Below are positions 32,702 to 39,268 of a stretch of 64,000 nucleotides of DNA, piece after piece. Source of the stretch: Betaproteobacteria bacterium (GTDB taxonomy: Bacteria > Acidobacteriota > Vicinamibacteria > Vicinamibacterales > CAVVIG01); assembly GCA_050257855.1 (NCBI GenBank), contig JBLMXQ010000018.1:5486-69485 (forward strand), read 5' to 3'. A program made the translations under genes and the position numbers. A model generated the notes under the pieces. That model had not been told where the DNA came from, made no database searches, and saw only the letters and a list, made by a program, of their open reading frames with translations. Each line of letters begins with the position of its first letter. Position 1 is the stretch's first letter.

Positions 32702-32977
32702 TCATCCCAGCCGCAGCTTCTTTTGCAGGTAGGCGGTCACGTTCGCGATCGAATCGAGATTGTCGGGCACGAGCTCGTGATTCTCGATCTTTATGTGAAA
32801 CGTCTGCTCCAGGAACGCGATGAGCTCGAGGACGCCCATCGAGTCCACGATCCCCGACTCGAGCAGCGAGTCGCCGCGGGCGATCGGCGTGGACTCGTCC
32901 CCGAACAGGAAGTTACTGACGATGAAGTTCCGGACCGTCGTCTCGGTGGTGTCCATATCCGTCGTCGTCCGAAGCAT
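32702..32977 (-). CDS. Stand-alone acyl/aminoacyl carrier protein
   Basis: SLLESGIVDSMGVLELIAFLEQTF (DS phosphopantetheine site); PDNLDSI; alternative start 32956. Confidence 0.92.
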   Translation of the reverse strand: MLRTTTDMDTTETTVRNFIVSNFLFGDESTPIARGDSLLESGIVDSMGVLELIAFLEQTFHIKIENHELVPDNLDSIANVTAYLQKKLRLG

Positions 32978-37573: not shown

Positions 37574-38095
37574 TCACATCGAGGCGTTGCGGGATTCGGC
37601 GCCGGCGCCCGACCGCGTCAGCCTGAGGCCTCGCACGAACTCCTCGTACGGATGCTCGGCGGTGAGCGGCACGGATGCGACACCCAGCGCCCCGGCCGCG
37701 GGAGCGCCCCAGACCGTGTGCGCCGGCACGTTGCGGCTCACGACCGTGCCCGCCCGGATGACGGCGCCTTCGCCGATTCGCACGTTCGGCAGGATGATGC
37801 AGTGCGGTCCGACGAACACGTCGTTCTCGATGACGACGTCGCCCTTGCTCGTCGGCCTCCGGGGTCCCCAGTAGAAATGCGTGATGATCGAGCTGCGCAA
37901 TCCGATCGTGCAGTTGTCCCCGATCCTGACGTGTTCCGGGTGCAGCTCGTCGATGTAGACCAGCTGGGCAATCCACACGTTCCGGCCGATCTGAACGCCC
38001 CGACGCCGGTGCAGCCACGGCCGGACGGTCGCGCCGCCCGGCATCACGAACGCGAGCTTGTGGAGGAGTCTTCTGACCGCGTCGGCAGCGTTCAT
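37574..38095 (-). CDS. Left-handed beta-helix (hexapeptide) acyltransferase
   Basis: GVQIGRNVWI, VRIGDNCTIG, VVIENDVFVGPHCIILPNVRIGEGAVI, WGAPA. Confidence 0.9.
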   Translation of the reverse strand: MNAADAVRRLLHKLAFVMPGGATVRPWLHRRRGVQIGRNVWIAQLVYIDELHPEHVRIGDNCTIGLRSSIITHFYWGPRRPTSKGDVVIENDVFVGPHCIILPNVRIGEGAVIRAGTVVSRNVPAHTVWGAPAAGALGVASVPLTAEHPYEEFVRGLRLTRSGAGAESRNASM

Positions 38096-38109
38096 CGTGA
38101 ACTCGTCAG

Positions 38110-38125
38110 AGCAACTCACGAGCCA
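38110..38125 (-). promoter_or_regulatory. Sigma54 -24/-12 promoter
   Basis: TGGCTCG-TGAG-TTGCT vs consensus TGGCACG-N4-TTGCW (1 mismatch). Confidence 0.72.
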
Positions 38126-38252
38126 GATTGAATGATGGAGTTCGCCGCGCCTCGTCAGCGGAGTCGAGATCTTAAGCCGCCGTCGAGCAAGACATTCATC
38201 TGCCAGTCGTGCGGATATATCGATGTTTCGCGCGTCGTCGTGCCGTGGTCAT

Positions 38253-38290
38253 TGCCGAATAATCGGCACAACCCTGACGGCATTCCGGCA
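38253..38290. promoter_or_regulatory. Tandem enhancer-like palindromes
   Basis: TGCCGA-N4-TCGGCA (38253-38268) and TGACGG-N4-CCGGCA (38275-38290), 22 bp apart. Confidence 0.55.
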
Positions 38291-38320
38291 ATGAAAGCCA
38301 TGCAGTGTTGCGACCTGCTG

Positions 38321-39268
38321 TCAGCCTTTCGGTGCGACGTAGCTCCTGCGGCCGCGCGCCTTCAGACCCTTGCCCGCAACGCGCACGTCGATGCGGTGCA
38401 CCTTGCCGTCGCGCTTCGGCGGGGTGAAGCCGAGCAGGTACTGGCTGTGCAGTTCATCGGCCACGCTCGTGAACGCCGCGCCCAGATCGTCGCCGTACCG
38501 GATCTCCGCATAGCCTCCGCCGGTCTCCTCGGCGACGCGCGCGAGCCCGGGATCGGGAAGATCGGCGAGCAGCGCGGCCTGGAGACTGCCGGGCCCGATG
38601 GCCCCGCCCGGCGGCCGCTGCGGACGGCTGTGCATGCCGACGGCGTAGACCATCACGTCCTCGTTCCGCGCGCGGTCGATCACCTCTGCCTGGCTCGAGG
38701 CGCGATGGCGGAAGTCGATTGGTCCGCTGTCCTTGCCGTCGCTCAGCACCAGAATCACGCGGCGCTGGTCGTCCCGATCGCCGAACGTGTCCATCGCCTC
38801 CTCCAGCGCCCGCCAGAGCGGAGTGGGGGCGTCGGGCGCGATCGTATCGGGCAGCGCCGCCAGAAGCCCACCGGGATCGTGCGTGAACGAGGGACTGATC
38901 GTGACCTGTTCGCCGAACGATCCCACACGCACCTCGTCGTCAGGACGAAGCCGCGCGAAGAGCTGCTCGGACGCCGCGCGCAGCAGCGGAAGATTGCCGG
39001 CCATGCTGCCCGACACGTCCAGCATGACGACGAGCTTGATGGGCTGCGGGGAGTTGTCGAACTGGGCGAGCCGCTGCGGCTTCCTGTCGTCGCGCACCTC
39101 GAAGTCGCCGCGCGTCAGCGAGGTGACGAGCCGCCCGTCGCGATCGGTGACGGTGACGAAGACCCGCACCGCGTCCCCGCGGCCGCGAAAGACCGGCTGC
39201 TGCGCGAATATGCCGTGCAGGCTGATGACGGAGGCGGCCAGGACGCCGCATGCGACGAGTCGGGTCAT
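38321..39268 (-). CDS. Acidobacterial VWA-domain secreted protein
   Basis: VFVTVTDRDGRLVTSLTRGDFEV, MIDAS-like LDVSGS, LSDGKD, EETGG, LHSQYLLGF. Confidence 0.9.
   Translation of the reverse strand: MTRLVACGVLAASVISLHGIFAQQPVFRGRGDAVRVFVTVTDRDGRLVTSLTRGDFEVRDDRKPQRLAQFDNSPQPIKLVVMLDVSGSMAGNLPLLRAASEQLFARLRPDDEVRVGSFGEQVTISPSFTHDPGGLLAALPDTIAPDAPTPLWRALEEAMDTFGDRDDQRRVILVLSDGKDSGPIDFRHRASSQAEVIDRARNEDVMVYAVGMHSRPQRPPGGAIGPGSLQAALLADLPDPGLARVAEETGGGYAEIRYGDDLGAAFTSVADELHSQYLLGFTPPKRDGKVHRIDVRVAGKGLKARGRRSYVAPKG

Follow-up and report, generated by a model that had tools for sequence, protein, structure and literature searches.

The general model of transcription activation by enhancer-binding proteins (bEBPs) is that of the enhancer-dependent sigma-54 promoters of the NtrC family (PMC11841059). 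A further described system is the NmpR regulon of Myxococcus xanthus, in which an NtrC-like bEBP, paired dyads and sigma-54 promoters located downstream of them are combined in a low-oxygen set of several operons (McAllister et al. 2025, PMC11841059). The NmpR site has been defined experimentally as GCGCA-N5-TGCGC with a preferred gap of 14-15 bp, and the regulon comprises 7 promoters (PMC11841059). For the enzymes encoded at the locus described here, a counterpart is found in the operon asnB-smb20651-smb20650-nadE1 on pSymB of Sinorhizobium meliloti, in which smb20651 encodes an acyl carrier protein (ACP) and smb20650 a ligase (PMC7232532 and its reference 5). The ligase loads this dedicated ACP, and the product of the cassette is unknown (PMC7232532).

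The locus considered here belongs to an acidobacterial genome with 69% GC and lies in the window, that is, the whole 64-kb stretch of DNA that was analysed. It comprises an operon and its control region, the 225-bp gap between the gene for a VWA-domain protein and the gene for an LbH acetyltransferase (Table 1). A sequence-only reading of the window had placed a sigma-54 promoter in front of an amidotransferase operon. The operon does contain an AsnB-type glutamine amidotransferase, but its first gene encodes the hexapeptide-repeat acetyltransferase. The best explanation of the control region, with a probability of about 0.8 as judged from the sequence, is that the -24/-12 element is a genuine sigma-54 promoter, that the two dyads upstream of it form a bEBP enhancer, and that the operon is switched on together with a larger regulon programme.

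Table 1. Positions of the features discussed, in window coordinates unless a contig (C8) is named.
Feature	Position	Strand	Remarks
VWA-domain protein, upstream neighbour, outside the operon	38321..39268	minus	acidobacterial model TIGR03436
Distal dyad P2, TGACGGCATTCCGGCA (plus strand)	38275-38290		11/12 positions of TGCCGG-N4-CCGGCA; matrix score 20.2
Proximal dyad P1, TGCCGAATAATCGGCA (plus strand)	38253-38268		perfect palindrome; matrix score 17.4
Sigma-54 -24/-12 promoter, TGGCTCG-TGAG-TTGCT = TGGCTCGTGAGTTGCT	38110..38125	minus	11/12 consensus positions
GG of -24	38124-38123	minus	
GC of -12	38112-38111	minus	
Predicted start (~38099) and 4-nt leader CACG	38096..38099	minus	usual 12-nt spacing from the -12 C to +1
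LbH (hexapeptide-repeat) acetyltransferase, 173 aa, first gene	37574..38095	minus	Hexapep; weakly similar to WcaF/NeuD/Vat-type families
NadE-like PP-loop enzyme, 332 aa	36568..37566	minus	PRK00876 (NCBIfam), 506 bits against a cut-off of 313
AsnB-type glutamine amidotransferase, 671 aa	34553..36568	minus	TIGR01536, 508.6 bits
AMP-forming acyl ligase (adenylating enzyme), ~547 aa	32913..34556	minus	
Acyl carrier protein, ~91 aa or shorter, last gene	32702..32977	minus	ACP homologues with the cassette in most of 80 loci
Candidate regulator block	C8:43613-48405		PAS histidine kinase (minus), NtrC-type bEBP 455 aa, NifU-like 74 aa, receiver-less bEBP 350 aa

The genes of the operon overlap or are separated by gaps of at most 7 nt. 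The start codon of the first gene, ATG 38095, is supported by a 76%-identical homologue at locus L079, which aligns from its own N-terminus across RLxHKxAFV and has a valine where the window acetyltransferase has its next methionine. The acetyltransferase is a local addition to a cassette: genes for a NadE-like protein, AsnB, the AMP-ligase and the ACP are found together in most of 80 loci that span many phyla, those of Mesorhizobium among them. The NadE-like protein has close homologues (58-76% identity) in many phyla, and in nearly every case AsnB, the ligase and the ACP are encoded alongside, in an order that varies. Among 60 relatives, only one carries a close homologue of the NadE-like gene (E <= 1e-40), and a genome of the same genus is without the operon. 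A second NAD synthetase, glutamine-dependent and 550 aa long, is encoded at C95:6488-8140. The earlier view that nadE and asnB do not have housekeeping roles here holds, because a separate NadE is encoded elsewhere, 59 of the 60 relatives lack the NadE-like gene, and the genes travel across phyla as an accessory cassette. A link to the XrtA/PEP-CTERM/PrsR system, suggested by hits of AsnB and the ligase, was rejected on the basis of model scores, which are 392.9 for AsnB with TIGR03108 (cut-off 816.9) and 338.3 for the ligase with TIGR03098 (cut-off 592.35).

The promoter element has a single mismatch to TGGCACG-N4-TTGCW, with the invariant GG and GC intact and a spacing of exactly 10 nt. It is intergenic and correctly oriented, and it is located 16 nt upstream of ATG 38095, with 14 nt (CTGACGAGTTCACG, minus strand) between TTGCT and the start codon. 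In the 64-kb window it is the sole match to TGGCNCG-N4-TTGCW, compared with 0.03 expected from shuffled sequences. Across the 4.7-Mb genome, 20 sites match at least 11 of the 12 sigma-54 positions with GG and GC intact, and the window element is one of them. Intergenic DNA makes up ~17% of the genome and holds 13 of these 20 best matches, with some error in the intergenic and genic classes due to crude, GC3-based gene calls. The position of the -12 C at 38111 predicts a transcription start near 38099, 4 nt before ATG 38095. Both the element, with its one mismatch, and this start site had been proposed in the sequence-only reading; the element was recovered here, and the same start is predicted. 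No Shine-Dalgarno sequence is present in the predicted 4-nt leader, which would fit an mRNA requiring leaderless-type translation.

The centres of dyads P1 and P2 are 22 bp apart, exactly two helical turns, and the gap between the dyads is 6 bp. The distance to the -12 C is 149.5 bp from the centre of P1 and 171.5 bp from that of P2, within the range of roughly 70-200 bp expected for bEBP sites; relative to the predicted start, the dyads are at about -162 and -184. P1 is the only TGCCGA-N4-TCGGCA in the genome and departs symmetrically from the core of the palindrome family described below, with GA/TC in place of GG/CC. A perfect palindrome of this sequence and a degenerate twin 22 bp from it, ~155-190 bp upstream, had been noted before, and their coordinates and distances are correct. 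The accompanying claim that this is the usual enhancer geometry stands with regard to tandem dyads upstream of a -24/-12 element; the sites are, however, further upstream than usual.

Two other properties of the control region can be recorded. An outer 9-bp inverted repeat, TCATTGCCG (38249-38257) and CGGCAATGA (38285-38293), frames P1 and P2, and the 45-bp enhancer region as a whole (38249-38293) is roughly symmetric. A role of the dyads as a terminator or a structured RNA was considered and rejected: no intrinsic terminator, T-tract or Rfam RNA family was found in the 225-bp gap, and the dyad region shows no unusual folding as RNA (z = -1.55).

P1 and P2 are members of a genome-wide palindrome family, yGCCGGAwwTCCGGCr, which matches no bEBP site known to us; a strong regulon site reads TGCCGGATTTCCGGCA. 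The looser pattern TGCCG-N6-CGGCA, which had been put forward for a genome-wide scan upstream of -24/-12 elements, is not itself rare. With one mismatch allowed, it has 13 matches in the window compared with 8.3 expected. The genome contains 47 TGCCG-N6-CGGCA sites, 21 of which are intergenic. Many of the genomic sites extend to TGCCGGAwwTCCGGCA, and it is the extended family that proved to be tied to promoters. The significance of the dyads comes only from this family and from its link to sigma-54 promoters.

The link can be described in terms of the sites with at least 11 of the 12 positions of TGCCGG-N4-CCGGCA. Forty-five of these are intergenic, and many have a -24/-12 element 60-130 bp away that points away from the site. 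A promoter with a match at 10 or more of the 12 positions is present at 60-140 bp from 9 of the 45 sites, compared with 0.95% of random intergenic positions (~20-fold, p = 4e-10). When the threshold is at least 9 of 12 positions, the proportions are 16 of 45 and 4.3%, respectively (p = 3e-11). The control consisted of 20,000 random intergenic positions. A weight matrix derived from 16 family sites, with the window locus excluded, contains information only in the 16-bp core, and it ranks P2 among the top 25 and P1 among the top 48 of 4.72 million genome positions. Genome-wide, ~40 triplets of site, promoter and gene were obtained, with distances that cluster at ~62-130 bp and show weak 10.5-bp phasing across the regulon (Rayleigh R = 0.34, p = 0.01). 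On this basis, the regulon would include about 30-40 sigma-54 promoters. Tandem sites were rejected as a rule of the regulon, as the offset profile points to a single strong site in most members.

It is improbable, although conceivable, that the -24/-12 element is real while the dyads are not its enhancer, so that the promoter responds to another of the genome's bEBPs through an unrecognised site or the dyads are bound without effect. Such a reading draws on the degeneracy and the position of the dyads, which at 150 and 172 bp are further out than most regulon sites (62-130 bp), at the outer edge of the distribution, and which sit 3-4 bp off the mean helical phase of the regulon. Most regulon members have one strong and closer site, and at the acidobacterial loci L006 and L009 the sigma-54 promoters that drive the cassette region have upstream repeats of another kind and a different bEBP encoded nearby. 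Some other regulon members nevertheless have sites at 143-194 bp, and a second promoter, on C126, likewise has two dyads 22 bp apart. Moreover, two dyads of such high rank, 22 bp apart in a gap of 225 bp and upstream of a top promoter match, are very unlikely to occur by chance. It is plausible that P1 and P2, as two weaker sites, bind cooperatively and in this way offset their lower affinity.

About equally improbable is that the -24/-12 element is fortuitous. The operon would then be expressed either through transcripts that continue from the VWA gene or from a housekeeping-type promoter that escaped recognition, and the palindromes would be binding sites of a conventional repressor or activator, or would mark where the VWA transcript ends. 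The bare core TGGC-N7-TTGCW has 53 copies in the genome, which equals the expectation from zero-order base composition according to our own calculation. By itself, this core is no evidence. The extended consensus says more, as matches at 11 of 12 positions are rare and strongly over-represented between genes. The VWA gene shares the strand of the operon, its stop codon is 31 nt before P2, and no terminator-like hairpin was found after it; read-through may contribute to expression of the operon. A consensus scan of the 225-bp gap found no sigma-70-like promoter, and acidobacterial sigma-70 promoters may differ from this consensus. The predicted leader of only 4 nt also speaks for this reading. 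Against these points, the link of the palindrome family is with -24/-12 elements, at distances expected of an enhancer, and not with -35/-10 positions; as RNA, the dyad region lacks a T-tract and folds with no more than ordinary stability; and short leaders recur in the regulon.

The last point concerns several regulon promoters at which the start codon is 13-22 nt past the -12 C, so that the window locus is not an isolated oddity. The clearest case is the gene for ribose-phosphate diphosphokinase (Prs, C133:30882), whose GTG start codon, fixed by the N-terminus of Prs, follows the -12 C by 14 nt. Near start codons without a Shine-Dalgarno sequence were observed at this gene, at C149:15387, C146:24915 and C108:3950, and in the window at 38095-38111. 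Read from the sequence, near start codons at many regulon promoters imply that leaderless or near-leaderless mRNAs would be produced from sigma-54 promoters. To our knowledge, such mRNAs have rarely been described.

That the palindrome family is a dispersed REP-like repeat, whose nearness to sigma-54 promoters only reflects a shared intergenic preference, is highly improbable: a true REP-like hairpin family does exist in the genome and no promoter could be recognised near many of the high-scoring palindromes, but the ~20-fold enrichment was measured against random intergenic positions, the sites keep a preferred distance and orientation to promoters with weak helical phasing, their flanks are not conserved outside the 16-bp core, and the exact motif is kept in other genera, where it co-occurs with one bEBP orthologue.

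The hairpin family, GGGACGGCCT(A/T)AAGGCCGTCCCCTAC, was exposed by the reversed control and is intergenic. Its core, GACGGCC-N2-8-GGCCGTC, has 107 copies genome-wide, for example at C14:21946, C24:27776, C80:5472 and C146:29523, and none of them is in the window.

With the dyads read as the enhancer of a genuine sigma-54 promoter, the following mechanism can be proposed. RNA polymerase containing RpoN would bind TGGCTCG-N4-TTGCT as a closed complex, and an AAA+ enhancer-binding protein encoded elsewhere would bind P1 and P2, which lie upstream of the -12 element at distances of ~150 and 172 bp. The activator would open the promoter by means of DNA looping and ATP hydrolysis. Transcription from ~38099 would yield an mRNA with a leader of ~4 nt that covers the acetyltransferase, the NadE-like and AsnB-like enzymes, the AMP-ligase and the ACP. 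P1 and P2 would represent weaker, doubled versions of the yGCCGGAwwTCCGGCr enhancer that serves stress, low-oxygen and NAD-salvage promoters. Since this enhancer serves a regulon, the operon would be induced together with the regulon and would not be constitutive. In this scheme, we infer binding, looping, start site and inducing signal from the sequence.

The proteins required by such a mechanism are encoded in the genome, which has an RpoN gene (Sigma54_DBD match, 221 bits) and ~25 bEBP genes (Sigma54_activat above 170 bits). The Sigma54_activat search found no true bEBP in the 64-kb window. The best candidate for the activator is most likely one of two bEBPs at 45.5-48.4 kb on contig C8. 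One is the NtrC-type response regulator, whose gene is divergent from that of the PAS histidine kinase and which would act with this kinase. The other is the receiver-less bEBP (C8:47353-48405), whose gene is co-transcribed with that of the 74-aa NifU-like protein. A sigma-54 promoter, CGGCACATACGTTGCT, precedes the NifU-like gene, with a family-like site ~40 bp further upstream, and both the promoter and the site are found at this operon in the relative G006 as well as in the genome studied. The layout of NtrC-type bEBP, promoter, NifU-like gene and receiver-less bEBP is the same in G006 (locus L092). The kinase was seen only in the genome studied, as the L092 contig starts inside the NtrC-type gene.

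Comparison with relatives supports this choice of locus. The exact palindrome, TGCCGGAWWTCCGGCA, is present in 15 of 60 relatives from the same order, in 1-6 copies each, and its reversed control hardly occurs in them. An orthologue of the receiver-less bEBP was found in 14 of the 15 motif-bearing relatives compared with 12 of the 45 others, with a Fisher p value of 6e-6 that is somewhat inflated by the shared ancestry of the genomes. The orthologue, 86-87% identical, is the only bEBP found adjoining palindrome sites in the relatives, and in G003, G006 and G022 the exact motif lies 1-3 kb from it. The co-occurrence of motif and orthologue points to the C8 locus, and not to either of its two bEBPs in particular. 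An activator unlinked to the operon, as the sequence-only reading had anticipated, is supported by the empty window search and by a candidate locus on another contig that co-occurs with the motif. An NtrC-type bEBP beside a strong site on C78 was also considered and set aside as uninformative: it is present in 5 of 5 relatives checked, with or without the motif.

The content of the regulon was determined by assigning genes through family scans, or by eye where marked. Its first genes encode two universal stress proteins, a glycyl-radical-enzyme activase, an enzyme of the pyruvate:ferredoxin-oxidoreductase type, several mono- and multi-haem cytochromes c, and CBS, BON and DUF308 proteins. A dienelactone hydrolase and a radical-SAM protein are also included, together with, by eye, an Rrf2 regulator, a Lon-like protease and a malic enzyme. 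The same enhancer and a sigma-54 promoter precede the genes for nicotinate phosphoribosyltransferase (PncB, C133:69042) and Prs. The presence of PncB and Prs alongside the extra NadE-like gene may reflect a co-regulated NAD-salvage theme, and a NAD-related role for the extra NadE is possible because pncB and prs are in the same regulon.

A well-known dormancy programme is the DosR/DevR regulon of Mycobacterium tuberculosis, in which universal stress and CBS-domain proteins, nicotinate phosphoribosyltransferase, and ferredoxin or anaerobic-type enzymes are co-induced. DosR is a regulator of the NarL family that acts with sigma-70-type promoters. By analogy with this programme and with the NmpR regulon, the regulon described here resembles a hypoxia- or dormancy-like set, with the inducing signal judged from gene content.

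The sites of the regulon are clustered, with at least 15 on C133 (7-103 kb) and at least 12 on C8 (9-44 kb). This suggests that they are arranged in stress islands and not spread evenly. The bEBP block on C8 is at the edge of a 35-kb stretch that is rich in regulon sites.

The palindrome family is absent from all 80 cassette loci of other genomes, and no dyads or promoter were found downstream of the VWA orthologues in G003 and G007. Elsewhere, the cassette is not generally preceded by a sigma-54 promoter; only the acidobacterial loci L006 and L009 have such promoters and a local bEBP by the cassette. A sigma-54-like match in the Mesorhizobium loci L038 and L042 was discounted, as it lies inside a 912-aa coding region.

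At these two acidobacterial loci (L009:3863-5895 and L006:3369-5591), the NadE-AsnB-ligase cassette comes after a gene for a receiver-less bEBP and two small ORFs of 67-100 aa. Each small ORF has its own GGC-N8-TTGC promoter and encodes a hydrophobic stretch followed by basic residues at the end. These products are PEP-CTERM-like by eye only, and those of L009 have no match to a PEP-CTERM model. A motif common to both loci, GA(C/T)GTAAGTCGC, is located upstream of the second promoter.

The mechanism proposed is textbook sigma-54 control, and the promoter itself is unsurprising. Its value lies in the regulatory context, and hence a testable inducing condition, that it provides for a widespread four-gene cassette, the orphan asnB-ACP-ligase-nadE, whose product has been unknown since 2009. 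The locus, whose promoter match is among the best, is also a clear addition to a large sigma-54 regulon of a little-studied and largely uncultured order of soil acidobacteria, for which an enhancer motif has now been defined and a candidate activator locus proposed. It is, in addition, one of several regulon promoters with a start codon so near the -12 element that the mRNA would be leaderless or nearly so. A broader picture is possible but rather doubtful at present: in some members of the order, one master bEBP that recognises yGCCGGAwwTCCGGCr, possibly receiver-less and coupled to a NifU-like redox sensor, might run a dormancy or low-oxygen programme of 30-40 operons through sigma-54, with many leaderless or near-leaderless mRNAs and with the asnB-ACP-ligase-nadE cassette recruited beside pncB and prs. 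If this were true, the product of the cassette or the extra NadE would have a role in survival under oxygen or energy limitation.

Compared with the described systems, the control region shares with classical NtrC-family promoters, such as glnAp2 of enteric bacteria, the GG-N10-GC element, tandem upstream dyads, an activator encoded elsewhere and RpoN. It differs from them in the position of the sites (~-160 and -185 compared with ~-100 to -140), in the predicted leader of 4 nt, and in its host, an uncultured acidobacterium. Like the NmpR regulon, the set of promoters is defined by motif, promoter and orientation. Unlike it, the gap between the dyads is 6 bp (22 bp from centre to centre), there are ~30-40 promoters compared with 7, and the gene content is different. 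NmpR was rejected as the type of the cognate regulator, as its GCGCA-N5-TGCGC site is distinct from yGCCGGAwwTCCGGCr, and the resemblance is functional only. The likeness to the DosR regulon is one of gene content only, whereas the wiring here is of the sigma-54 and bEBP type. The operon in the window brings together the same four enzyme families as that of S. meliloti, from which it is distinguished by the LbH acetyltransferase in front and by the motif of a sigma-54 regulon.
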